Source of the DNA: an uncultured candidatus Brocadiaceae bacterium | GTDB lineage: Bacteria > Planctomycetota > UBA1135 > UBA2386 | DNA length: 64,000 nucleotides | Assembly: GCA_964418595.1 (NCBI GenBank) | Contig: CAYQMF010000001.1 | Coordinates: 92,258 to 156,257 of the forward strand | Reading direction: 5' to 3' | Part shown: positions 6,371 to 24,163 of the stretch, piece by piece | How the letters are laid out: every line of letters starts with the position of its first letter | Numbering within the stretch: the stretch's first letter is position 1 | Program-made: the position numbers and the translations under genes | The notes under the pieces: generated by a model | Seen by the model: only the letters and a program-made list of their open reading frames with translations | What the model was told of the DNA's origin: nothing | The model's database searches: none

Positions 6371-9300
6371 TCACGGACGGACGTGCATCACGCCGCGCAT
6401 GATGCGCCAGTGGCCGGGGAAGGTGCAGACGTACGGGTAGTCGCCGGGGGTCGAGGGCGCCGTGAACTCCAGGGTCGCGCTCTCGCCGGGGTTGAGCAGG
6501 CGGATCGAGTGCAGCACGCGCGGGTCCTGCGGCACGAAGTTCTTCGCGAAGCCGTCGGCCCCCATCACGTCGGCGAGCGCGCCGATCGCCTCGAGCGAGC
6601 CCGGTGCGAGGATCAGCAGGTTGTGCTGCATGGCGTCCGGATTCCGCAGGACGAGCCGCACCGGCCGACCCGCGGTGACCGCGAACTCCTCCTGGTCGTA
6701 GCGCATCTTCTCGGGCACCGTGCGCAGCTCGACGACCTGCGGGTTGATCGCGGTCAGCGAAGCGCGCACCGGTGTCGCCTCCGCTGCGGGCAAGGCACCC
6801 GCGAGCTGCTCCGTCAGCCGCACCACACGCTTCCACGCCTCCGCCTCACGCTCCGCCGGCGCCGCCGCCGTCGCGATCCGCAGCAGGTCGCGCACGAGCA
6901 CCCGGGCGACGGGCGCCGGCATCTCCGCACACGGCATCTGCAGGAGCGCGTCGACCGCCGCGCCGCGCACCTGGTCGGCGCGTACGAGCTGCGCCAGATC
7001 TGCGAACTTCGCGTCGCGCTGCCCCGGCACCCGCACCGCGGCCGCAATCGCCGCGCGCCGCAACGCGAGGCTGCCGTCGACGCTCAGCGCGGCCGCGGGG
7101 ATGTCCTGCTTGCCGAAGCCGGGCCCGCTCCACGCCAGGCGCAGATGATCGGCGCCGCCGGCGTCGTAGTAGGTGACGACGATGGGGTGCTGGCCGACCA
7201 GAAGGTCGATCGTGCCACGCTTCTCGACCACGCCGTGCGGGCCATCGTTGCTGACCACTTCGCGGTCGTCGACCCATAGGCGCGAGCCGTCGTCGGACGC
7301 GCAGAAGAACGTGTACTTCCCCGGCGCCGCCACGCTCAGCGTCGCCGACAGCACGAGCGCGTAGGGCTCGCTCGTGATCCCGGGGACCTCGTGCGTGAAG
7401 GTCTCGACCGTACCCATGGCCTTGGGCGTGAGCGCCGCCAGCGTCTCACGCCGCACGTCGGGGAAGCTCTGCTCCTCGTACAGCGAAAACGCGACGCCGG
7501 TGCTGCCCGGCGCGCCCGCCGCGAGGCTCTCCGGCACCCCGAACATCAGCGGCTGCACGCGCGCCCACGCGTCGCCCGCGGTCGCGGGCAACTCGCCGCC
7601 GAACGCAATCCCGCGCAACAGCTCGCTCAGGGCGGCGACGCTGGTGCTCGCGGTCTCCCACGCCGAAGCGACCCCGCCCGACGCCCGCACCCAGGCGCCG
7701 TAGGCGGCGGCGCGCACGTCGCTCCGCTTCGCCTCGCGCGCCAGCGCCTGCACCTCCGCCAGTCTGCCGGTCAGCTCCGCCGGCGGCCAGGCGACCAGCA
7801 GCGCACCGAGGTCCGTCGCCCCCGGCGCATCCGACGCCGCGCCGCGCAGGCTCGCCAGCAGTTCGACCAGCGCCGGCCGACCGCTCTTCTGCGCGAGCGC
7901 TTCGAGCGCGCTGCGGCGCTCGCTCGCGGCCACGCCGGCGCGGCCCAGCAAAGCCTTGCACACCGCGTCGGTGCGCGGCAGGCGCGCGAGGTCGGCGGCG
8001 TCGACCATGTCGAGCAGCCAGGCCAACCCCGCGTCGTGGCCCTTCGCGAACGACTCGCCGGCGCGGATCGCCTCCGTCCACTGCGGGCGCAGGGTCAGCA
8101 TGGTCTCGCGCAGCATGTAGCGCAGGTAGCGGTCCAAGGGCTGGCTTGCGGCGCGCAGCGCGATCTCCGCCGCGCGGGCGCTGGCGAAGAAGCTGCACGC
8201 CCGCACCACCTCCGCGCGCACGCGCGCATCGGGATCGACGACCATCTCGCCGAGCACGTCGAGCGCATACGGCGCCGTGTGGCGGACCTCGCACAGCACG
8301 CGCGTGGCGGCCGCGCGCGCCCGCGCCTCCGGCGAGCGGAGCACGCGACGCAGGTGGTCGGCGTCGACGGCGTCGCACATCTGCTGCACCCACAGCGCCT
8401 CGAGCAGCAGGTGCTCGCGATCCGGTGCGTCGGCGGGCAGCGCCGCGAGCCACGCCTGCAGCGCGACGAGGACCTTCGCCGGCGGACGGCCCGAGAGTTC
8501 CCGCCGCGCCCGGTAGCGCACCGGGTCGTCGCGCTCCGCGAGCTGCGCCATGAGCGTCGCCTCGCTCGCTTCGTGGTTCGCCTTCGGCGTGAGCCTGCTC
8601 CGCTCCGGGTTGCTGATGCGATACACGCGGCCGTGCACGCGATCGCGGCTCGGATCGCGCAGGTTGTGCTGCATGTGCCCGATGATCGGGTTCTGCCAAT
8701 CGACGAAGTACACCGCCCCGTCGCCGCCGATCTCGACGTCGACCGGCCGGAAGTTCGAGTCCGTCGACGACACCAACGGCTCGACCTCCGTGGCCTGGAA
8801 GCCCGCGCCGTCGTCCTCGAAGCGGTACTGCAGGATGCCGAGGAAACCGATGCAGTTGCTCACCAGCCAGTTGCCCTGCATCGCCTCGGGGAAGTGCGCG
8901 CTGGACAGGATCGCGGTGCCGCCGCACGGCCGCGTGCGCTGGCGGTACACGGTGGGCGCGCCGGCCACCTTGCGCGGGTGCTCCGTGTGCACGGAGATCG
9001 CCGCGCCCCAGTACGGCACGGCACCCGTGCCGTCGGTGACGAAGTCCTGGCCCCAGCGGTCGAACACGTGCCCGTGCGGGTTGGCGAAGCCGTACGCCGC
9101 ATACACCTCGAAGCGATCGCTGCGCGGCTCGTAACGGAACACGCCGGCGTTGAAGCTCCGCACCGGCGGTCCCCACGGCGTCTCGACGCCGGTGTGGTGA
9201 AACGTGCCCTCCTGCATGTAGAGCGCGCCGCCGGGGCTGAACACGAAGCTGTTGATCGAGTGGTGCGTGTCGGCGGAATCGATGCCGGAGAGCACGCGCA

Positions 9301-13603: not shown

Positions 13604-15682
13604 TCAGCGGATCTTGCCGAGCGCCGCCTGCGCGCGGCTGCGCACCTCGGGCGCGAGCGTCGGTTCACGCAGGAGCGCCTCGAGCACGGGGCGTGCGTCG
13701 GCGGCGCGCCCCTGCCCAACCAGGATCTCGCCGGCGTAGAGGCGAGCGCGGACGCCGGTGGCGTCGACCTGCTCCGCGGCGGGCAGCACGCCCAGAAGAA
13801 CGAGCCAGCGCTGCGCGATCCCCGGCAGCTCCACCGGCGTGAGGCGTCCCGACTCGTGCGCGAACAGGCCGCGCCGCAGTTCGAAGCGTGGGTCCGTCGG
13901 GTAGCGACGCACCGCATCGTCGAGCATGCGGGTGTACGTCTCCGGCGCCACGCGGCCGAGCGTCAGGTCGAGGAGCGCGACGCGCGCGTAGTAGTGGTCG
14001 GGCAGGGCAGCGAGCGTCTCCTGGCACACGGTCACCGCCGCCTCGACCTTGCCGCGCTGTTGCAGGATGCGGATGAGGCCCTCCGCGAGGCGCGCTTGCG
14101 AGCCGGAATGCGCGACGTGCTTCGTCGCCAGCGCCCGGCGCAGGTTCGCCTCCGCGCCCTCGACGTCGCCCTGCGTGGCCAGCAGCGCCGCGAGGTTGCC
14201 GAAGCCGCCGGAGTGCTCCGGGTCTGCGGCGATGGCGCGCTCGAAGTAGGCCCGCGCCCGCGCCGGGTCGGTGCCGAGCAGCGTGTAGCCCGCCTTCACC
14301 TGCAGGTCGGCGCTCGCGGGCGTACGGTCGGCATCGGTGCAGAGCAGCGTCGTCGAGTCGCGCCACGCGCCGTTGCGCGCGAGGATCACCGCTGCGTGTG
14401 CGACGCCGAGCGCGAGCAGGGCGATCACGGCCGCGCGCCGCGCAGGCGAACCTTCGCGCAGCTTCGCCACCGCCCACGCTGCGAACAGGCACACGCCGAG
14501 GCTCGGCACGTAGTAGCCGCGCTCGCCGAAGATCGTGCCGACGGCGACGGGGATGTTCGAACCGATGAACGAGAAGCCGAGGAACACAGTGGCGCCGAGG
14601 AACAGGAGCGGCTGGCGCCGCCGCAACCGAAGCGCGAGCGCGAGCCACGCCCCGAGCACGCCGAGCGCCGCCAGGAAACCCGGCGCCAGCGGCGAAGTGA
14701 GTACTGGCAGGGCGCCAGGCCCGTAGATCGACGAGAGCCCGTACGGGACGACACACTTGAGCAGGCCGAAGCCCAGGAGCGCGACCGCGGTGAGGACGCG
14801 CGGACCGGCGCCGGTGTGGGCGAGCGGGTTGTGTTCGTACGCCGGCAGGTACGCAGCCATGTCGCCGACGACGACCTGGCGCAGCACGAAGAACAGGACG
14901 AGCGGCGGCCCGAGCGCGATGGCCAGCGCCTTGCCTCGCGTGCGCAGGAGCTGCGCGAGCGTCAGTGGCTCGCCGGCGAGCCAGGCCTTCGCCAGCAGAT
15001 GGCAGACGAGGAACGGCGCCCACGCCAGCGCGCTCTCCTTGGCGCCGAAGGTCAGGAAGAAGACGAATGCCGCCGCGGCCACGCGCCCGCGATCGAACAG
15101 GCGCAGGGCCGACAACCCGAGCGCCATGCCCATCGGATCCGCGCGTCCCACGATCCCGGCGACGGACTCGCTGTGGATGCCGCAGACGGCGAACCCGCCC
15201 GCGGCGAGCAGCGCGACGAAGGCGCCCGCGCCGAGGTCGCGCAGCCAGCGCCACACCAGGAACACCGCGAGCACGTGCACCAGCACGTTGAACAGGTGCT
15301 GCGGCAACGCCTCGAGGTTCGCCGGCAGGAGCGGCGCCGCAATCAGGTTGTAGACGAGCGCGAAGCTCAGGATCGTCGTGGGCCGGTACTCGAACGACGC
15401 GGCGGCACTGCCGGCGGTGTACTTCTGGCCGAAGTACCACCAGGGTTCCTTCAGGCCGGCGATGACCTGGTGCGGCTTGCCGTCGGGCCCGACCGCCTGC
15501 GCGAACGACGCGTCGTCGAGCGCGAAGCCGTTGCCGAGCGAGGGCGCAAAGACCAGGAACGCAACGGCGAGGACGACCAGCAGGATCCGCTTCTCGAGAG
15601 GCTCGGGCAAGGCGCGGATCGTAGACGGCGCACGCGCACTAGCCGACGCAACCTTGACGACTTCGCGGCGCACCATCACCAT
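13604..15682 (-). CDS. GT-C-fold membrane glycosyltransferase (PMT/TMTC-like) with C-terminal TPR repeats
   Basis: The start is the ATG at 15682 (MVMVRREVV...), with an alternative ATG at 15721. It has about 11 hydrophobic segments and a first-loop acidic motif, GNGFALDDASF. The C-terminal TPR-like region reads ARAYFERAIAADPEHSGGFGNLAALLATQGDVEGAEANLRRAL. The track ORF 13604..16774 is over-extended. Confidence 0.75.
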   Translation of the reverse strand: MVMVRREVVKVASASARAPSTIRALPEPLEKRILLVVLAVAFLVFAPSLGNGFALDDASFAQAVGPDGKPHQVIAGLKEPWWYFGQKYTAGSAAASFEYRPTTILSFALVYNLIAAPLLPANLEALPQHLFNVLVHVLAVFLVWRWLRDLGAGAFVALLAAGGFAVCGIHSESVAGIVGRADPMGMALGLSALRLFDRGRVAAAAFVFFLTFGAKESALAWAPFLVCHLLAKAWLAGEPLTLAQLLRTRGKALAIALGPPLVLFFVLRQVVVGDMAAYLPAYEHNPLAHTGAGPRVLTAVALLGFGLLKCVVPYGLSSIYGPGALPVLTSPLAPGFLAALGVLGAWLALALRLRRRQPLLFLGATVFLGFSFIGSNIPVAVGTIFGERGYYVPSLGVCLFAAWAVAKLREGSPARRAAVIALLALGVAHAAVILARNGAWRDSTTLLCTDADRTPASADLQVKAGYTLLGTDPARARAYFERAIAADPEHSGGFGNLAALLATQGDVEGAEANLRRALATKHVAHSGSQARLAEGLIRILQQRGKVEAAVTVCQETLAALPDHYYARVALLDLTLGRVAPETYTRMLDDAVRRYPTDPRFELRRGLFAHESGRLTPVELPGIAQRWLVLLGVLPAAEQVDATGVRARLYAGEILVGQGRAADARPVLEALLREPTLAPEVRSRAQAALGKIR

Positions 15683-15724
15683 GCGCCGGCGCCGGTGCCC
15701 ACCTCGCGTCGGCGCCGACATCCC

Positions 15725-16990
15725 GTGCCGCCGACGAGCCCCGCGCCCGACTCCACTCCCGCCCTCGCCGGAGCGCCCCTCGCACTGGGGCGCTCCCGTT
15801 GGGAAGTCGCGGGCCTGTGGGTGTGGGGACTCCTGGCACTGGGCATCGCCATCCGCATCGGCCTGGTCGAAGCCGACCCGCGCCGCAACAACGTCTACCT
15901 CAAGGTGTTCGCCGAGGCGGGCGACGCGTTCGCGCAGGGTCGCAGTCTCTACTACCTGCCAGACGGCACGAGGACCGGCTTCCGCTACCCGCCGTTGACC
16001 GCCGCGGTCTTCACGCCGTTCGCGTTGTGCGGGCCGATCGTCGGCAGCCTGTTGTGGCGCGCGCTCAACTTCGGCGTGCTCCTGGCGGGCCTGCGCGCGT
16101 GCTTCCGCGCCGGCTTCCCGTGCCGGCTCGACAGCGCACCCCGCGGCGTGCTCCTCGTGCTGGTGGCGCTGGCGGGGATCACGAGCTTCAACAACGGGCA
16201 GACGAACCCGCTGGTGCTGGGCCTGTTCCTGCTCGCGACGACCGCCACGCTGGCGGGGCGCGCGCTCGGGCCAGCGGTGGCCACGGGGACCGGCGTCATC
16301 CTCAAGCTCTACCCCATCGCCTATGCCGGCGTCCTCGGGGCGCTGCGGCCGCGGCAGATCCTGTGGCTCGTGCCCGTGCTTGGCCTCGGCCTGCTGCTGC
16401 CGTTCGCGCTGCAGGACAGCCAGTACATCGCCGACCAGTACCGCGACCTGCAGACCCTCCTGCAGGCGGAGGACCGCAGCCAGGATGGCCTGTGGAACCG
16501 CTACCGCGACCTGCGGCTGGTCACCGAATCGCTGGGGTTTCTGCTGCCGGAGCGGGTGTTCCAGGTGCTGCAGGTCATCGGCGGCGGCGCCATCGTGGGC
16601 CTGTGCCTCTGGCTGCGGCGCGCCGGCGCGCAGCCGAAGCTGGTTCTGGACTACGCGTTCTCGCTGACGATGTGCTGGTTCATGCTGCTCGGCCCGGCGA
16701 CCGAGAAGGCCACCTACATCCTCGTCGCCCCGAGCGTCGTCTGGCCCCTGCTCCAGGTCTGGCCCGACCGGCATCGCCGGCGAGGCACCTGCGCCGCGCT
16801 GGTGGTGGCGAACGCGTGCATGCTGACGTCGCTCTTCCCCATCGACCTCAGCCGCACCTCGGATCAGGTCTGGCGCTGGTGCTTCCTGCCGTACGCGGTC
16901 CTGATCCTGACGCTGGTCCTCGGCTGCCGCGCCGCCGACGATCTGCGCCAGCTCCGTCGCGGCGAACCATCGCGGCGGGCCGTCACCTGA
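15725..16990 (+). CDS. GT87/DUF2029-like polytopic membrane glycosyltransferase
   Basis: It is the real part of track ORF 13523..16990. There is no in-frame ATG; the candidate GTG starts are 15695 and 15725. It has many TM segments and a DUF2029-like FRYPPLTAAVFTPFA motif. The exact start is uncertain. Confidence 0.65.
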   Translation: MPPTSPAPDSTPALAGAPLALGRSRWEVAGLWVWGLLALGIAIRIGLVEADPRRNNVYLKVFAEAGDAFAQGRSLYYLPDGTRTGFRYPPLTAAVFTPFALCGPIVGSLLWRALNFGVLLAGLRACFRAGFPCRLDSAPRGVLLVLVALAGITSFNNGQTNPLVLGLFLLATTATLAGRALGPAVATGTGVILKLYPIAYAGVLGALRPRQILWLVPVLGLGLLLPFALQDSQYIADQYRDLQTLLQAEDRSQDGLWNRYRDLRLVTESLGFLLPERVFQVLQVIGGGAIVGLCLWLRRAGAQPKLVLDYAFSLTMCWFMLLGPATEKATYILVAPSVVWPLLQVWPDRHRRRGTCAALVVANACMLTSLFPIDLSRTSDQVWRWCFLPYAVLILTLVLGCRAADDLRQLRRGEPSRRAVT

Positions 16991-17021
16991 TCCGACCCCG
17001 ACCCCCGCTCCCCGCCCCGTC

Positions 17022-17864
17022 TTGTCGCAAGCCCCGCGCCTCGCCCTGACGCTCGTCGTGCCCGTCTACAACGGCGCGTCGTTCCTGGCGAGCACGCTGC
17101 AGCAGGTGCAGCAGTGGCTGGCGGAGCGGACCCGGCCGTGCGAGGTCATCGTGGTCGACGACGGCAGCACCGACGGCACGGCGGCGATGCTCGCGGCGTT
17201 CGTGGCCGGGCGACCAGCGACCCCCGGCGCCGACGTCGTGGTCCTGCGCAACGCCACGAACCGGGGCAAGGGGTTCAGCGTGCGCCGCGCGTTCCTGCAC
17301 GCGCGCGGCGAGCACGTCGTGTTCACCGACGCCGACCTGACCTACTCGCTCGACAACCTGGTGCCCATCGTCGGCGCTCTCGAAGGTGGCGCCGACATCG
17401 CCTACGGGAGCCGCATGCACCGCGAGAGCCGGTACATCGTCGCGCCCACGTTCTTCGGCAAGCTGTTCACGCGGCACCTCTCGGGGCGCTGCTTCAACCT
17501 GCTGGTGCGCATCCTCGTCCTGCCCGGCGTGCTCGACACCCAGGCCGGGCTGAAGGGCTTCCGGCGCGACGCGGCGCGCACCCTCGCCGGGCGGGTGCGG
17601 CTCGACCGCTTCTCGTTCGATGTCGAGCTGCTGTTCGCGGCACGGCGCCTGGGGATGACGCTGACCGGCTGTCCGGTGCTGTTCGTGTACCGCAAGGAGC
17701 CGACGACGGTGCGCTTCGCGCGCGACTCGCTCGCCATGTTGCGCGACATGCTCCGCGTGCGCTGGCGCGCGCTGCGCGGCGTCTACGCGCGCGAGGCGCC
17801 GGCCGAGGTCATCGAGGATCTGCGCTGCGGCGGGGCCGCGCGGTCGCCCGGCACGGCGGGCTGA
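17022..17864 (+). CDS. GT2 polyprenol-phosphate glycosyltransferase (DPM1/ArnC-like)
   Basis: TTG at 17022. Motifs: LTLVVPVYNGASFL, VIVVDDGSTDGT, VVFTDADLTYS (DxD), and GFRRDAAR...FSFDVELL. Confidence 0.85.
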   Translation: MSQAPRLALTLVVPVYNGASFLASTLQQVQQWLAERTRPCEVIVVDDGSTDGTAAMLAAFVAGRPATPGADVVVLRNATNRGKGFSVRRAFLHARGEHVVFTDADLTYSLDNLVPIVGALEGGADIAYGSRMHRESRYIVAPTFFGKLFTRHLSGRCFNLLVRILVLPGVLDTQAGLKGFRRDAARTLAGRVRLDRFSFDVELLFAARRLGMTLTGCPVLFVYRKEPTTVRFARDSLAMLRDMLRVRWRALRGVYAREAPAEVIEDLRCGGAARSPGTAG

Positions 17865-17868
17865 GCCG

Positions 17869-18717
17869 ATGGCGAGCGCAGCGCGCCGGATCGTCTTCGT
17901 CGCCGACGACCTCGGGATCTCGGATGGCGTGAACGAAGGCATCGCGCGCGCCGCGCGCGCCGGCCTCGTGTACGAGGCGTCGGCGTGCGTCACCGGCGAC
18001 GCCCTGGCGGCGGGAATCGACATGGCCCGCGACGTCGGCATCGGCGTCGGCCTGCACCTGTCGTTCACGCTGGGCAGGTCGCTGACCGGCCCCATCGCCG
18101 GGCTCACCGACGCGACCGGCGCCTTCCGCGATCTCGCGCAGGTGCTGGTCGCGTGCCTGCGCCGGCGCGTCGACCTCGCCGCCGCCGCGCGCGAGACCGA
18201 CGCCCAACTCGCGCGCCTGCGCGACGCGGGTGTCACGCCGACGCACCTCAACGGCCACCATCACGTGCACTGCATGCCGGGCCTCCGCGACGTGGCGCTC
18301 GCGGCCGCGGCGCGGCACGGCATCCGCTGGACACGCCTGCCGCTCGAACATCGCGCCGCGGGCGGCCGCCTGCGGCCGACGCGCTGGTTGCTCGCGCGCC
18401 TCGCGCGCGCGACGCGCCCCGTGGTCGTGCGACACGGTCTTTCGGCCTTGCCCTTCGTGGGGGTCACGCTCGAAGCGTGCCGTGGCTATGGCGCGCGCGT
18501 GCGCGCGCTGGCCAGCCGCCTTCCGCCCGGCGACTACGAGTGGATGGTGCATCCGCGCGTCGCCGACGACGCGTTCGCGCGCCTCGACCCGCGCAGCGTG
18601 CCGCGCACCGACGCGACGGCCGAGGAACTGGCCGCACTGACCGATCCGGCCCTCGTGCGCGATCTGGCCGCCACCGGCGTGACGACGGCGCGCTTTCCGC
18701 CGGCTACTCGGCCTTGA
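17869..18717 (+). CDS. YdjC/ChbG/NaxD-family carbohydrate deacetylase
   Basis: The start RIVFVADDLGISDGVNEGI and the metal-site region HLNGHHHVH are characteristic of the YdjC family. It begins 5 nt after the GT2 stop. Confidence 0.8.
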   Translation: MASAARRIVFVADDLGISDGVNEGIARAARAGLVYEASACVTGDALAAGIDMARDVGIGVGLHLSFTLGRSLTGPIAGLTDATGAFRDLAQVLVACLRRRVDLAAAARETDAQLARLRDAGVTPTHLNGHHHVHCMPGLRDVALAAAARHGIRWTRLPLEHRAAGGRLRPTRWLLARLARATRPVVVRHGLSALPFVGVTLEACRGYGARVRALASRLPPGDYEWMVHPRVADDAFARLDPRSVPRTDATAEELAALTDPALVRDLAATGVTTARFPPATRP

Positions 18718-18973
18718 TGTGTTTCGAGACGAGCTTCGTCATCTCGAACATCGTCACCTTCGCCTTGCCGCCGAACACCGCCTTCAGCTTCTCGTCGGCG
18801 TTGATGTTGGTGCGGACCTTGGCGTCCTGCAGCCCGTGCTTCTTGATGTAGTCCCACAGGCGCTTGGTGATCTGACCGCGGGGCGCCGGCTTGGGGCCGA
18901 TCACGGCGGCGAGGACTTCGTCGGGCTGGACCGGCTTCATCAGCGCCGGATTGATCTTTCGCTTGGTGGCCAT
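18704..18973 (-). CDS. SWIB/MDM2-domain protein (89 aa)
   Basis: ATG at 18973 (MATKRKINPALMKPVQP...). The SWIB-like core reads RGQITKRLWDYIKKHGLQD...INADEKLKAVFGGKAKVTMFEMTKLVSKHI. The track ORF 18704..19741 is over-extended. Confidence 0.8.
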   Translation of the reverse strand: MATKRKINPALMKPVQPDEVLAAVIGPKPAPRGQITKRLWDYIKKHGLQDAKVRTNINADEKLKAVFGGKAKVTMFEMTKLVSKHIKAE

Positions 18974-19047
18974 CGGCCGGAACGGTAGCAGGGCGCCCCG
19001 AAGGCGAGCATCCCGAGGCACAGAATCCGGCAGAAGCCGCGCGCGCG

Positions 19048-19692
19048 TCAGCCCGCGACGCGACCTGGGCAGTCGGGGGCCAGCGCGCAGCCGGCGCAGT
19101 CGGGACGCACCCGGCACACCGTCTGGCCGTGATGGCGGAGCCGGTGGAACGCGTCGACGCGCACCTCGGTGTCCTCGGGCAGCTCCGCGGCGGCCGCGCG
19201 CTGGGCCGAGCGATAGCTCGTCGCGTACGCCTTCGCCTCCTCGCCGTAGCCGAGGCGCAGCAGGACGCGCAGACCATTGCTGTCGAGGGCGACCGCGGGC
19301 ACCACGCCCGCGAACAGCAGGAGGCGATCGGCCCCCGGCACGCCGATCCCGGGAAACCGGCGCACCCTCGCGCGCGAGGCCTTGGCATCGGCGGTGACGA
19401 TCGCCGTCGGACCGCCCATCTCCTCGCACAGCATCGCGCACGAGCGCAGCTTGCGAACCTGCTGCGCCGCCATGCGACCCTCGCCACACGCCGCCGCGAG
19501 GACCGGATCGGGCGCCGTGGCGATGCGTGCGGCCCGCAGCCCCGTGTCGCGGCGCAACCGCGCCAGTGCCCGGCCCCGCGCCGCGTCGTCGGCAAGGTAG
19601 ACCACGTTCTCCCACAGGATCTGCACCCACGGATCCCGGGGCAGAAGGGTCACGTCGTGCTGCACCCGGCGCAGGGCGCGCAGGAGGTTCAT
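19048..19692 (-). CDS. HhH-GPD / endonuclease III-like DNA glycosylase with Fe-S cluster loop
   Basis: ATG at 19692 (MNLLRALRR...), with an alternative at 19710. The helix-hairpin-helix is FPGIGVPGADRLLLF. The C-terminal CRVRPDCAGCALAPDC matches Cx6Cx2Cx5C. Confidence 0.75.
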   Translation of the reverse strand: MNLLRALRRVQHDVTLLPRDPWVQILWENVVYLADDAARGRALARLRRDTGLRAARIATAPDPVLAAACGEGRMAAQQVRKLRSCAMLCEEMGGPTAIVTADAKASRARVRRFPGIGVPGADRLLLFAGVVPAVALDSNGLRVLLRLGYGEEAKAYATSYRSAQRAAAAELPEDTEVRVDAFHRLRHHGQTVCRVRPDCAGCALAPDCPGRVAG

Positions 19693-19756
19693 GAGGCGCG
19701 GAGGAGGCATCGGGAGACGCGGCGATGATAGTCCCCGCCACCGGGCGACGGCGCTA

Positions 19757-19767
19757 CGCGTACACTC
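19757..19767. repeat. Left copy of the 11-bp direct repeat CGCGTACACTC
   Basis: Exact match to 22618-22628. It is intergenic and lies at the transition from high-GC to lower-GC DNA. Confidence 0.6.
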
Positions 19768-19865
19768 CAGCCCGATGACGTCCTCGCCGCCGTGATCGGC
19801 AACAAGCCGGCGCAGGGCACCGGGGCGATTGAACACCCAGGTCCCCTGCGGGTAGCGTGCCCCCG

Positions 19866-20813
19866 ATGGCAAAGACCAACCCGCCGGACGACGACGCGGA
19901 GATAGCGAAGAAGCTGTTCTTCCAAGAGTTCCTGATCGACTTCCTGGGCGGTCTCGTTCCAGGGATCCTCTTCCTGGTAGCAGCGACGTTCGCTGCAGTC
20001 CCCCCGCTGTTGGCGCTGTTCACGGCGCTCAAGCCGCCGCCCCCGCCAGGTTCGCCAGACCCCGGGCCTGGACAAATGCTACTGGAGGCTCTGTCGAAGA
20101 CGCAGAATACGCCGAGCGCGGTATGGATCAGCGCGTTCGTCATATTCGTACTCCTAGCCTATGTCATCGGCCACCTCTTCTACCGACACGACCTCAAGCG
20201 TGCCGATCGAGCAAGCTTCGCCAGACTAGCAAAGACAGAGGATAACAAGACGGATGAAGGCAAGAAACGCAACCTGGCCTGCTCGAACGTCTCCGAATGC
20301 GAGTTCCCCTATCCCTATTACCATTTGTACCTCCAGCAGCGCGGTCTGACCCATCTCGTCCCCCTAGCCGTCTGGCGCAAGAATCAATTCCACCGTAGCA
20401 AGACCTACATCAACACGCTCAAGATACGTCTCAAGCACTACTATCCCGACAAGTGCGGGACCATTATCAAAAACGAGGCCCACGTCCGCCTAGCGTCGTC
20501 TGCTTGGTATGTCTCACTACTCCTCATTGTCTTGGCTGTCGTGGCCATCGTCGTCGTCGGTGCAGCCCTGATCATCTCTTGGAGTAGGGGTCGGCTCGGT
20601 TCATGGAGCGATTACGCGCTCGCCCATCTGCCGGGTTTCGTAGCTCCAGCTATCGTTCTCGGCATGGCCGCTTTCTCTAGGAAGATCATCAACGGGTTCC
20701 TTCATTACCAACGGTTGCGCGAGGTCTTCTTTGTGCTGGAAACTGCGTTCACAGCCTTTCGCGACAACACCGACCGACTTGATCCGCCATTCCCCCAAGC
20801 GCCCGAAAATTGA
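19866..20813 (+). CDS. Orphan 4-TM membrane protein of unknown function
   Basis: ATG at 19866 (MAKTNPPDDD...); the track starts at GTG 19857. It has two TM pairs (LVPGILFLVAATFAAVPPLLALF and VWISAFVIFVLLAYVIGHLF; AWYVSLLLIVLAVVAIVVVGAALII and FVAPAIVLGMAAF). These flank a ~115-aa basic/aromatic loop. Many codons end in A/T. Confidence 0.65.
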   Translation: MAKTNPPDDDAEIAKKLFFQEFLIDFLGGLVPGILFLVAATFAAVPPLLALFTALKPPPPPGSPDPGPGQMLLEALSKTQNTPSAVWISAFVIFVLLAYVIGHLFYRHDLKRADRASFARLAKTEDNKTDEGKKRNLACSNVSECEFPYPYYHLYLQQRGLTHLVPLAVWRKNQFHRSKTYINTLKIRLKHYYPDKCGTIIKNEAHVRLASSAWYVSLLLIVLAVVAIVVVGAALIISWSRGRLGSWSDYALAHLPGFVAPAIVLGMAAFSRKIINGFLHYQRLREVFFVLETAFTAFRDNTDRLDPPFPQAPEN

Positions 20814-20898
20814 GGCGGAGCTGAGTAAGACGCGGTTTCACAACCTGGTACATGGATGGCACTTGTACTTTTTCCCGGTCTGTGGCTTCGTCTGCGGG

Positions 20899-21550
20899 AT
20901 GGCAAAGCGATTCTCACGAATCCTGAGCGACGAGCAATGGTCAGTCCTGCAGCCGCTGTTCCCCACGCCGAAGGTGCGCAAGGGCAGGAACAAGGGCGGG
21001 CGGCCATGGCGTGGCAACCGCGAGTGCCTCGAGGGGATCATCTGGATCTTGCGCTCGGGAGCGCGATGGCGGGATCTGCCGCCTCCGTTTCCGAGCGGCG
21101 TGACGTGCTGGCGCCGCTTGCGGGATTGGCAGAAGAAGAGAGTCTGGCGAGCGGCCTGGGAGGCGCTGCTCGGTGTTCTGGACGAACGGGGTCGACTCGA
21201 CCTGCAAGAGGCGTACGTGGACGCGACCTTTCGGGCCGCCAGAAAGAGGCGACGGAATTGGCCTCACGAAGCGTGGGAAGGGCACGAAGGCCGAGTTCCT
21301 CGTGAGCCCAGAGGGCGTGCCGCTGGCCGCGGTCAGTGCCCCCGCTTCGGTCGGAGAAACCAAGCTTGTCGAGCCAGTGCTCGAGCAACTCAACGGCAGC
21401 GGCTGCCCGGACCTCTGGCCAGAGATCGTGATCGCGGACAAGGCGTACGACAGCGACGCCCTACGAGACGTCACCGCATCGGTCGGCATCCTCCTGCTTT
21501 CTCCCCATCGGCGGAACCGGCGGCCCGACAAGCGCACGAACGACGCATGA
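20899..21550 (+). pseudogene. IS5-family (DUF4096 + DDE, IS427/IS1031-like) transposase, frame-broken and 3'-truncated
   Basis: The N-terminal part, in the frame of track ORF 20731..21561, reads MAKRFSRILSDEQWSVLQPLFP...LRSGARWRDLPPPFPSGVTCWRRLRDW. Similarity jumps near 21229-21235 to the frame of ORF 21173..21550 (LTKRGKGTKAEFLV...IVIADKAYDSDALR...SPHRRNR). The product ends before the expected C-terminal RWxVE/RYE catalytic region. Confidence 0.8.
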
Positions 21551-21557
21551 GATCGTC

Positions 21558-22382
21558 GTGACGTCGCCGGGCGAACATCGCCGTGGCCTGTCGAAGAGGA
21601 TCTGCGAAGTGATGGGCGGAAGACGAACGGACGCCTCAAGGACCGATCGTGCCGTGACGTGCTGCAGAAGCTGGACGCAGCAGGCTTCCTGCACCTGCCC
21701 CCGAGGCGGCGGCCACCGACGTGCCGGCAACCGATCCAGATCACCGCCCACACAGATCCCCGACCAGCCCCTGCTGCCTTCGGCCCGCGCGACGTTGGCA
21801 CCGAGTGCTTCCAGATCGTCTCGCGTGATGGACACTCCGCCGCGGCGAGGCTGTGGAACGAGTACGTCGAGCGGTACCACTACCTGTGCTACGGCATCCC
21901 CGTCGGACCGCACATCAAGTACTTCGTCCACGTGCATGACGAGCCCATCGCCCTCATAGCCTTCGGCGGAGCCGCATGGAAGACTGCACCTCGCGACCAG
22001 TGGATCGGTTGGTCCAGAGCGCAACGGGAAGCCAACCTGCATCTCGTCGTCAACAACACCCGCTTCCTGATCCTCCCTTGGATTCGCATCGACAACCTCG
22101 CCTCGCGCTTGCTGTCGATCGCCGCAAAGCGACTACCGGAAGACTGGAATCGCCTATGCCTACCGACCGCTTCTCCTTGAGACCTTCGTCCACGCCGAGC
22201 GCCATGCGGGAACGTGCTACCGAGCCGCGAACTGGATCTGCGTCGGCACCACCAAGGGCCGCGGTAAGACCAACCGCAGCAAGAAGGACCGCATCCCCAA
22301 GAAGCTCGTCTCTTTGCTTCCGCTCGTTCGCGATGCACGCGAAAGGCTCGCGGCTGCCGACGCAGGCAATGTCGACCCGTGA
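21558..22382 (+). pseudogene. DUF4338 (DruA-like) gene remnant with at least two frame breaks
   Basis: Family-like segments lie in three frames. These are RRGLSKRICEVMG, then KTNGRLKDRSCRDVLQKLDAAGFLHLPP...VERYHYLCYG...AAWKTAPRDQWIGWS...VVNNTRFLILPWIRIDNLASRLL...EDWN, then YAYRPLLLETFVHAERHAGTCYRAANWICVGTTKGRGK. The breaks are near 21612-21618 and 22150-22153. The N-terminal part is missing. Confidence 0.7.
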
Positions 22383-22591
22383 ACGGTTACGCGGCCGTGC
22401 TGCGCGGGTTCTTCGACTATGCGACCGTGCTGGCCGGCGTCTTGATCTTCGCGGATCGGCCGGTCGAGCCCACCCAGACTCATTACGTGCGCCTCGCGGG
22501 GCTCACCTCGCTGCTGGCGTTCGTGCTGAACTACCATCCGGCCCGGTTCGGGAACCTGCTGAAGCGGGCGGGAGAGTTGGTGGGGAAGTAG
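22379..22591 (+). CDS. Small hydrophobic ORF (70 codons), possibly a gene fragment
   Basis: The GTG at 22379 overlaps the DUF4338 stop. The frame is GC3-rich (unlike the 4-TM gene). It has no recognisable motif. Confidence 0.3.
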   Translation: MNGYAAVLRGFFDYATVLAGVLIFADRPVEPTQTHYVRLAGLTSLLAFVLNYHPARFGNLLKRAGELVGK

Positions 22592-22617
22592 GGTTCCGAC
22601 CAACTGGGAGTGCCTCG

Positions 22618-22628
22618 CGCGTACACTC
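22618..22628. repeat. Right copy of the 11-bp direct repeat CGCGTACACTC
   Basis: Exact match to 19757-19767. It lies 33 nt upstream of the Vgb-like gene start. Confidence 0.6.
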
Positions 22629-22660
22629 GCCCTCCTGCCCCCAGCGCGAGAAGACCGAAC

Positions 22661-24007
22661 ATGCGCACCCTCCTCCTCGCTGCCCTCGCGGCGTCCCCAG
22701 CCCTGCCCGCCCAACTCACCGTGCGCGAGTACCTCCTCCCGCGCGCCAACGCCTTCCCGCACGACCCTGCGGTCGGGCTCGACGGGATGGTGTGGTACAC
22801 CGACCAGACCAACAGCCGCATCGGTCGCCTCGATCCCGACACGGGGGTGATCGTCGACTTCCCCACCCCCACGCCGAACTCGGGGCCGCACGGCATCACC
22901 GTCACGCCCGACGGGTTCATCTCGTACACCGCGCAGGACACCGGCAGGCTCGGGCGCGTCGATCCGGCGACGGGACGGATCACCGAGTACGTCCTGCCGG
23001 CCAACGCGTCGCGGCCGCACACGCCGATCGCGCACGCGGGCGCGGTGTGGTTCACGGCGCAGACCAACGACACGTTCGGGCGGTTCGATCCGACCAGCAA
23101 TCAGACGCAGGTGTGGTCGGCGCCGAGCGGGTCACGACCGTATGGCATCGCGCCGGCGCCGGACGGATCGCTGTGGATCGCGCTGTTCGGCACGAACAAG
23201 CTCGGGCGCGTCGACACGGCGAACGGCGGGCTCACGCTGTTCGACCTGCCCAACGCAGCCGCGCGACCGCGCCGTCTCGTGGTGGCCAATGACGGGCGGG
23301 TGTACTACAGCGACTACGCGCGCGGCTACCTCGGCCGCCTCGACCCGACGACGCGGCAGGTCCGCGAGTGGCGCTCGCTCGGCACGAGCCCCCGGCCATA
23401 CGGGATCTGGACGGGAACCGACAGCCGCATCTGGTTCAACACGTCGGGCGCCAACCTCATGGTGGCGTTCGACCCGCGCACGGAGCAGATGGAGGCCGTC
23501 CCCATCCCGACCAGTGGCAGCATCGTGCGACACATGGTGTGGGACACGCCCCGCGGTCGCCTGTGGCTGGCGCTGAGTGGAACGCAGCGCATCGGCGAGA
23601 TCCGGCTCGACGTGCCGGTGACGCGGTACGGCAATGCTTGCCCGGGAAGCCTCGGCAACCCCTCGCTCACGACCGCGGGCCTGCCGCGCATCGGGGACAC
23701 CTTCACCGTGGGCGTGAGCAACACGGCAGCACCGGCCGCGGCGCTGTTCCTCGGCGAGTCCGACGCGATGTGGAACAACGTGCCGCTACCGCTCGGGCTT
23801 GGCTTCCTCGGCGCGCCGGCCTGCGCCGTGCACCCGGCGTGGAGCCTGATCGTCTACAACGGCCACGCGGGCGCGGTGCCGATCCAGGTGCCGCTGGCGC
23901 TCGAGCTGGGCGGCGCGCGCCTGTTCTTCCAGTGGGCGCTCGCCGGCGAGCCGGGCTACGCGCTCACGACGACCGCGGCGGCGCGCGTGGTCGTGATCGG
24001 GACCTGA
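22661..24007 (+). CDS. Secreted Vgb (streptogramin lyase)-like beta-propeller protein with C-terminal shared module
   Basis: ATG at 22661 (MRTLLLAALAASPALPAQ). Propeller blades repeat: PHDPAVGLDGMVWYTDQTNSRIGRLD, PHGITVTPDGFISYTAQDTGRLGRVD, PYGIAPAPDGSLWIALFGTNKLGRVD, and others. The last 126 aa begin YGNACPGSLG. The track ORF starts at 22610. Confidence 0.75.
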   Translation: MRTLLLAALAASPALPAQLTVREYLLPRANAFPHDPAVGLDGMVWYTDQTNSRIGRLDPDTGVIVDFPTPTPNSGPHGITVTPDGFISYTAQDTGRLGRVDPATGRITEYVLPANASRPHTPIAHAGAVWFTAQTNDTFGRFDPTSNQTQVWSAPSGSRPYGIAPAPDGSLWIALFGTNKLGRVDTANGGLTLFDLPNAAARPRRLVVANDGRVYYSDYARGYLGRLDPTTRQVREWRSLGTSPRPYGIWTGTDSRIWFNTSGANLMVAFDPRTEQMEAVPIPTSGSIVRHMVWDTPRGRLWLALSGTQRIGEIRLDVPVTRYGNACPGSLGNPSLTTAGLPRIGDTFTVGVSNTAAPAAALFLGESDAMWNNVPLPLGLGFLGAPACAVHPAWSLIVYNGHAGAVPIQVPLALELGGARLFFQWALAGEPGYALTTTAAARVVVIGT

Positions 24008-24027
24008 CGCGCGGGGCCAACCAAGAG

Positions 24028-24062
24028 AAAAACCGGCTCAGGGTCGCGCCGACGCCGGGTTT
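24028..24062 (+). terminator. Possible hairpin terminator after the Vgb-like gene
   Basis: aaaaaccggc ...16 nt... gccgggttt. The stem is about 8 bp with one bulge. It has an A-tract before and only TTT after, so it is weak. Confidence 0.3.
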
Positions 24063-24163
24063 CGCGACACTGAGCGGTGCCGCTCCACGCCGGACGGCCT
24101 CGTTCTCGCCAACGCAGCCCGCGGCTGGTTCTGCCTCGCGCCGCGCGCAAGAAGGATTGCCAG

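Follow-up and report, generated by a model that had tools for sequence, protein, structure and literature searches.

A decayed patchwork of five unrelated gene pieces, probably a relic of horizontal transfer, inside an 11-bp direct repeat in a planctomycete genome

The stretch analysed here (the window) comprises 64,000 nucleotides of a contig from an uncultured candidatus Brocadiaceae bacterium. Between an endonuclease III-like (nth-like) gene and a Vgb-lyase-like gene it carries an interval, 19757-22628, that is bounded by the two copies of an 11-bp direct repeat, CGCGTACACTC. What looks like a tidy island with its target duplication turns out to be debris, five unrelated pieces that lie in a slot of variable content. 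Its anatomy can be read directly: all five pieces lie on the plus strand, and they do not make up one coherent mobile element. The interval is a non-autonomous patchwork and forms the foreign-looking core of a slot of about 3.9 kb between two conserved genes, YdjC and Vgb. The repeat is neither the footprint of the insertion sequence (IS) remnant that it encloses, which belongs to the IS5 family, nor the attachment-site (att) core of a recognisable integrative element. Probably the whole is an ordinary, decayed relic of horizontal gene transfer, with the repeat as an insertion duplication; more specifically, we give an even chance to the repeat being a target-type duplication that arose when the mosaic block was inserted. 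The repeat copies and the pieces between them are as follows, where GC3 is the G+C content at third codon positions and 4-TM stands for four-transmembrane.

19757-19767, plus strand: left copy of the repeat, CGCGTACACTC, exact match
19766-19813, plus strand: fragment of a SWIB gene, 48 nt, codons 16-31 approximately, QPDDVLAAVIGNKPA, 92% identical to the resident SWIB gene
19866-20813, plus strand: intact 4-TM gene, 315 aa, GC 0.574, GC3 0.71
20899-21550, plus strand: remnant of an IS5-family transposase (PF13340, 9.8e-25; PF01609, 4.2e-08)
about 21558-22382, plus strand: DUF4338/DruA-like pseudogene (PF14236, 3.7e-27 and 3.6e-05)
about 22343-22591, plus strand: orf70, a 70-codon open reading frame (ORF), 3' third of a gene by phmmer and tblastn
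22618-22628, plus strand: right copy of the repeat, CGCGTACACTC, exact match

The leftmost piece derives from a SWIB gene, of which the resident gene to the left of the nth-like gene is a source-like copy. In local alignment the fragment matches it at 44 of 48 positions, with sharp ends and no extension, and is cut on both sides; its orientation is opposite to that of the resident gene, so that it forms an inverted repeat with 18883-18930, the top inverted repeat found. One of the four differences is synonymous and one changes E to D; the other two share a codon (P to N), a pattern that may, if weakly, resemble the divergence of a once-functional second SWIB copy more than random decay. At the other end of the interval, a phmmer search of 1.84 billion representative proteins with orf70 gave 263 matches, the best of which (P0228, 203 aa) is 73% identical, with residues 5-70 of the query aligned to residues 137-202. 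By this homology orf70 is the C-terminal third of a member of an uncharacterised membrane-protein family of about 180-230 aa. What the source record annotates as a 70-aa gene (P0107) is a truncated fragment; its homology by tblastn reaches back to 22343-22361, and the missing 130 or so N-terminal codons are nowhere in the window.

The two remnants in the middle are both broken. In the IS5 remnant, the DUF4096 (N-terminal) and DDE_Tnp_1 parts stand in different frames, the shift falling near 21215-21250. On the IS5_3 model NF033580, it covers positions 4-101 and 115-209 of 258 and ends about 50 codons early. Its best plasmid-borne relatives are about 43% identical as proteins (ISDds9-like), and no DNA match, sought in plasmids to set the boundaries of the remnant, was found. 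The DUF4338 pseudogene adjoins the truncated IS5 and has no 5' end of its own. Its two PF14236 matches, to positions 59-167 and 169-226 of the model, lie in the frames of 21659 and 22152 respectively, and an N-terminal piece, as read from the sequence, lies in a third; the Pfam matches alone split the gene over at least two frames, and this piece makes them at least three, with at least two frameshifts (near 21600 and 22150). Together with the 4-TM gene and orf70, these are the contents that an earlier, sequence-only reading had listed, and all of them are present. That reading had also inferred an element whose mobility genes have decayed, which is not supported: the IS5 transposase is an internal, truncated passenger, and DUF4338 is no mobility gene but a domain described (PMC10853773) as a GNAT-like acetyltransferase. 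Neither remnant can explain the flanking repeat.

That the interval contains foreign DNA is supported by its composition. The repeat-bounded interval is the lowest-GC stretch of 2872 nt in the window, at 0.626 against a mean of 0.712 (standard deviation 0.021), or 4 standard deviations below it. Host genes (YdjC, SWIB, the nth-like gene, Vgb and the PASTA-MACPF gene further right) have GC3 values of 0.90-0.94, as against 0.71 in the 4-TM gene, 0.79 in the IS5 remnant and 0.77 in the DUF4338 remnant; orf70, at 0.90, does not deviate. The sliding-window and codon checks that had been proposed for the interval bear out a foreign origin, although for a core only and not for a single horizontally acquired element. 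Of two hand counts made earlier, that of 54% G+C for 20161-20260 was exact, and that for 19101-19200 should read 78%, not 76%. The deep trough (54-57%) is limited to the 4-TM gene and the left end of IS5, and a third-order Markov score trained on the host dips strongly at about 19850-20950 and stays moderately low up to about 22350. The foreign core thus spans about 19860-22350, and the repeat lies outside it by about 100 nt on the left and about 270 nt on the right. Deviating composition and codon usage do not extend into these outer 100-270 nt. From the left copy to the 4-TM start, 98 nt have a G+C content of 72%, and this inner end, made up of the SWIB fragment plus 52 nt, is host-like.

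Within the window, the repeat occurs on both strands together only twice, at 19757-19767 and 22618-22628, exactly and in intergenic DNA both times, as the first reading had it. The gap that holds the left copy measures 173 nt and runs from the start of the nth-like gene (19692, minus strand) to that of the 4-TM gene (19866). The right copy falls between the stop of orf70 (22591) and the start of Vgb (22661), 27 nt past the former and 33 nt before the ATG; a 448-aa protein in the database (P0108) and the orthologue in a relative both support this start. Variants with at most two mismatches number 27 in the window, where 38 are expected, and since near-copies are not enriched, the 11-mer is not a dispersed motif. 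It is also the sole direct repeat of at least 9 nt linking the zones 19560-19900 and 22350-22760, between which there are no inverted repeats of that length.

How unusual is such a match? The question was framed as how often two specific short zones share a match of at least 11 nt. With zones confined strictly to intergenic DNA (173 x 69 nt) this happens in 2.2% of random zone pairs drawn from the window at equal spacing and, when the real zones are shuffled with their dinucleotides kept, in 0.7% of shuffles; if only k-mers with at least four A/T are counted, the figure is 0.4% of random zone pairs. The earlier opinion that the match is unlikely by chance is upheld for these zones, yet taken by itself this nominal rarity is suggestive and not decisive. 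There is, however, a second coincidence. The final two nucleotides of the left copy (TC) are already within the SWIB fragment, whose homology starts at 19766. The start of this fragment at the left copy is a real rearrangement junction, and a junction falling within 2 nt of the copy would be expected by chance in roughly 5-10% of cases, by our estimate.

For the right copy, comparison is possible with L019, a 15-kb contig of a metagenome-assembled genome labelled Planctomycetota_UBA2386 by its depositor, and the sole syntenic relative found. Its Vgb orthologue (P0109) has 82% protein identity, and blastn aligns L019 5762-7148 with window 22617-24002 at 81.6% DNA identity, that is, Vgb with 45 nt upstream. 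Detectable homology resumes at 22617, either at the right copy or no more than about 10 nt from it. In the position of that copy, L019 has CGCCTACACTG, which agrees at 9 of 11 positions and is followed by the conserved leader CCTGCCCCC..CGCG..ATG; by this conservation, the right copy belongs to the native sequence upstream of Vgb. The SWIB, 4-TM, IS5, DUF4338 and orf70 sequences are all absent from L019. Three things speak for a repeat that is tied to a real junction: its rarity in the strict zones, the position of its left copy at the SWIB breakpoint and that of its right copy where L019 homology resumes.

From these junctions we infer a course of events. A staggered break of 9-11 nt would have occurred in promoter-proximal DNA just upstream of Vgb and been filled in as the mosaic block entered, either as such or in an initial version. 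The right copy would then be original to the site, and the left copy, which now adjoins the SWIB fragment, would have been duplicated from it. At its ends the incoming block would have carried stretches of a related, GC-rich chromosome, with foreign genes between them. Frameshifts and internal deletions would have followed, fusing the 3' end of IS5 to the 5' end of DUF4338, and a further deletion would have fused DUF4338 to the membrane-gene fragment now seen as orf70. Before the insertion, the empty site would have read ...ggcgacggcgcta-CGCGTACACTC-gccctcctgcccc.

A number of observations weigh against an insertion duplication. The window, at 71% GC, contains 1332 exact direct pairs of at least 11 nt at spacings of 0.5-10 kb, so that an 11-mer pair as such is unremarkable, and looser zones make a match common (10-44%): with the right zone widened (173 x 278 nt) it occurs in 3-10% (shuffles and random zone pairs, respectively), and with zones of 500 x 500 nt in 44% of random zone pairs. 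The composition boundaries, at about 19860 and 22350, do not match the repeat, and both inner ends are host-like. The resumption of homology at the right copy is a weaker argument than the left junction, since the conserved promoter-proximal stretch is short and the slot differs in other respects (a 458-aa gene, p458, in L019 versus the nth-like gene here), so that some break in synteny at this point would be expected however the repeat arose. The flanks to the left of the two copies both lack significant similarity to the L019 Vgb upstream region, and the comparison therefore cannot tell which flank is ancestral. The empty site that had been predicted, with the nth-like and Vgb genes adjacent and a single 11-mer, was not found in relatives: in L019 the two genes are adjacent in another order, and more distant relatives are not syntenic. 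No integrase, recombinase or transposase that could have moved the whole block was found, the interior ORFs matching only IS5 and DruA when scanned against Pfam, NCBIfam and PADLOC; no terminal inverted repeats adjoin the direct repeats, and there is no tRNA or tmRNA in the whole window.

Many of the same facts would be accounted for if the 11-mer pair were a chance match and the patchwork had accumulated in place, through successive insertions (4-TM, IS5 and a DUF4338 element) and deletions. The recombination-prone slot would once have held native genes between nth and Vgb, namely a second SWIB copy and a gene for a membrane protein of about 200 aa, and the true boundaries of the foreign DNA would be those given by composition, inside the repeat. 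The presence of host-like SWIB and orf70 fragments (GC3 of orf70, 0.90) just inside both copies, the variability of the slot as a whole and the lack of mobility machinery or terminal repeats that fit the block all favour such a history, as do the abundance of 11-mer pairs and the ill-fitting boundaries. On the other hand, it has to accept the low expectation for the strict zones, the coincidence at the SWIB junction and the fact that no other repeat of at least 9 nt links the two zones. Piecemeal accumulation around a fortuitous repeat is the main rival of the insertion reading and is regarded as possible, if somewhat doubtful.

Function could also have kept the two copies alike or made them converge. 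The right copy holds a -10-like box, TACACT (22622), which may have a promoter role, and the left copy has the same box at 19761; with their flanks, the two could be a shared cis-regulatory element for Vgb and the 4-TM gene, or divergently for nth. The position of the right copy 33 nt upstream of the Vgb ATG, its conservation in L019 along with the leader and the presence of the left copy, likewise oriented, ahead of the 4-TM gene would agree with this. However, a -10 box does not need eleven identical bases, no sigma-70-type promoter was called at either site, the intergenic DNA of the window has neither another copy nor a near-copy, and the motif is missing upstream of the more distant Vgb orthologues. 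A common regulatory element is thus distinctly unlikely. No Rfam family was found within 18000-24500.

If the repeat is a target-type duplication, what inserted the block? It may be that fragments were captured at a staggered chromosomal break by a process of the end-joining type, with no transposase or integrase, and that the 4-TM gene belongs to a hopping, solitary family with a novel fold and a selectable function, for example in defence or stress; this combination is unlikely. The 4-TM gene itself is clearly foreign cargo, horizontally acquired, and alone in the block still looks functional. Its protein has four hydrophobic segments and about 100 detected homologues with identities of 33-54%, but matches no Pfam, NCBIfam or PADLOC model. 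Conserved motifs of the family are GGLVPG, GHLFYRxDPK, CEFPYP, RSKTYINxLKIRL, NEAHVRLASS and FLHYQRLREV, and the copy in the window has all the family-invariant residues. With the family alignment, AlphaFold2 gave a confident, all-helical 4-TM model (predicted local distance difference test, 92.3; predicted template modelling score, 0.88), for which Foldseek found nothing comparable in the PDB (best E value 0.1, template modelling score at most 0.22).

The homologues are solitary genes in unrelated neighbourhoods, for example after an ATP synthase operon, beside toxin-antitoxin pairs or after a kinase-WD40 gene, and at the three loci examined in GC-rich hosts they have a lower GC3 than the genes around them. 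None is in the plasmid or phage collections, and hardly any are in IMG/VR. In its behaviour the family resembles a single gene that is often transferred. Repeats that flank the homologues in other genomes are chance-level matches only (8-12 nt, in zones of 500 nt). A 12-nt exact direct repeat, GCCCTCCGCTCG, flanks one of them at 7928-7939 and 9121-9132 of a 70%-GC, Planctomycetota-like contig (L002); it is within chance expectation for zones of this size, and there is none such at other homologue loci. A conserved family without a Pfam entry, with a fold that has no counterpart in the PDB and with contexts in many phylum-level groups, may merit functional study.

The variable slot as a whole, and the genes in and around it, are as follows.

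18691-22617, no strand: entire slot of variable content that YdjC and Vgb enclose, about 3.9 kb, from blastn against L019
18704-18973, minus strand: resident SWIB/MDM2-domain gene (PF02201, 5.4e-27), GC3 0.94
19048-19692, minus strand: nth-like gene, a homologue of the endonuclease III/MutY-like, HhH-GPD, iron-sulphur (Fe-S) glycosylases, with weak NCBIfam DNA glycosylase matches, GC3 0.90
22661-24007, plus strand: Vgb-lyase-like beta-propeller gene, native (PF24684, 1.2e-52)

The synteny break between the window and L019 is plain from the alignments. The left flank, through most of YdjC, is shared (L019 1-3979 and window 14685-18690, 76% DNA identity), as is the PASTA-MACPF gene on the right (L019 11954-15032 and window 24164-27236, 80%). 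Between YdjC and Vgb the whole stretch, about 18691-22617, differs, and not merely the part that is bounded by the repeat. The gene order is GT87, GT2, YdjC, p458, Vgb, nth (minus strand), MscS and PASTA/MACPF in L019, and GT2, YdjC, SWIB (minus strand), nth (minus strand), the block, Vgb and PASTA/MACPF in the window. The nth-like gene is native and positioned otherwise in the relative: upstream of Vgb in the window, it is directly downstream in L019 (7163-7828, with a convergent gap of 9 nt), on the same strand and with 74.6% DNA identity (blastn, L019 7163-7800 and window 19048-19685). Absent from the window are p458 and a 1116-aa MscS-type gene of L019; no significant remnants of nth, MscS or p458 were found in the window spacers, and no significant homology to the left zone of the window was found anywhere in L019, where the 64 nt to the left of the left copy likewise have no counterpart. 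The comparison documents a change of gene order between two related Planctomycetota genomes, in which the nth-like gene has switched sides and p458, MscS and SWIB have been lost or gained.

The direction of these changes is not given by more distant genomes. Vgb homologues with 66-74% identity (P0110, P0113, P0111 and P0117) are neither syntenic nor bearers of the 11-mer motif, and no outgroup therefore polarises the rearrangements. The nth-like protein has one match in GTDB species genomes (40% identity) and nine in JGI metagenomes (38-46%), none of them at a syntenic locus. Exact-protein look-ups of the window SWIB and 4-TM proteins and of P0001 returned no record.

Two simple rearrangements and one further origin for orf70 were considered and rejected. 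The 48-nt, 92%-identical inverted repeat (18883-18930 and 19766-19813) brackets the nth-like gene, but an inversion between its arms would have left the SWIB gene broken in either pre-inversion state. A tandem duplication of the Vgb-nth segment, proposed for both the order swap and the repeat, would still require a separate 11-bp duplication. As a tail of p458, orf70 would be expected to resemble it, and there is no similarity by tblastn or at the DNA level beyond a shared AAGTAGG around the stop codon.

Some features of the flanks may be noted in their own right. The SWIB gene (minus strand) and YdjC (plus strand) overlap convergently by 14 nt (18704-18717). The homology of YdjC to its L019 orthologue ends at 18690, about 27 nt before the window YdjC stop, and from this early end it follows that the YdjC C-terminus was remodelled by whatever changed the slot. 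The Vgb-like gene contains five periodic repeats of about 126-129 nt (22795-23347), which are read as beta-propeller blades and not as mobile or tandem DNA. The PASTA-repeat and MACPF protein (24164-27235, about 1020 aa) is likely to start at 24164, a start at 24077 being probably too early by comparison with L019. The 3' half of its gene, with 61-65% GC, is below its surroundings, but its GC3 is host-like (0.91). PADLOC matches to PD-T4-6 fall in the N-terminal region of this protein, which NCBIfam matches to PASTA repeats.

How does the interval compare with known systems? The pseudogene matches PF14236, "DruA", and, weakly, the PADLOC DruA model, and in this it resembles Druantia. It differs in being solitary, broken and only about 280 codons long, and no DruB-E partners or large DruE (DUF1998 helicase) were found near it, its neighbours being IS5, the 4-TM gene and the membrane-gene fragment. 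The closest plasmid-borne DUF4338 relative is also solitary and lies in an IS-rich, integrase-bearing insertion in a Thiodictyon megaplasmid, which suggests that solitary DUF4338 genes may travel with mobile elements. In the Thiodictyon megaplasmids (L026, NZ_CP020372.1, 278719-287417; L027, NZ_CP020371.1), one DUF4338 insertion, with an integrase, IS91 and IS4, interrupts a DUF2235 gene; in another IS cluster, a gene with the annotation of an ISAs1-family transposase contains a second DUF4338-like stretch. The remnant in the window is not Druantia and fits mobile-element debris.

An IS5-family element would share with the interval its transposase (DUF4096 and DDE_Tnp_1, NF033580), which in such an element should fill most of about 1-1.5 kb. 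In the window the transposase takes up only 20899-21550 of the 2872 nt, 1.1 kb from either copy of the repeat, and three unrelated genes or fragments share the interval with it. Target duplications in this family measure 2-9 bp (2-4 bp in IS427, IS1031 and ISL2-like elements, 4 bp in IS5 and 9 bp in IS903), and the 11-bp repeat therefore does not fit.

With an att-flanked integrative island the block shares an exact direct repeat around compositionally atypical, foreign-looking DNA. The copies could then be attL and attR of a small integrative element, brought in by site-specific recombination, whose integrase has since been deleted, as the heavy deletions in the interior would allow. The block is, however, very small, has no integrase, no terminal inverted repeat and no tRNA target, and leaves no recombinase remnant in any frame of the ORFs examined; its ends are ordinary chromosomal gene fragments, not the ends of an element, and 11 bp is short for an att core. 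At the site that should be empty, L019 has a single related copy (9/11) upstream of Vgb, with a different gene to its left and the nth-like gene elsewhere; searches turned up no relative closer than L019. An att core, as the sequence-only reading had also proposed, is very unlikely.

The closest likeness is to a small genomic islet in a variable slot. The block differs from such islets in being very small (2.9-3.9 kb), in having one intact cargo gene and in containing host-like fragments inside its flanking repeat; in addition, a core-like gene, the nth-like one, has changed sides relative to Vgb. In other respects the correspondence is good: YdjC is conserved as the left flank, as are Vgb and PASTA-MACPF at the right, the content in L019 is other, and the block has the atypical GC and codon usage, IS debris and pseudogenes of an islet.

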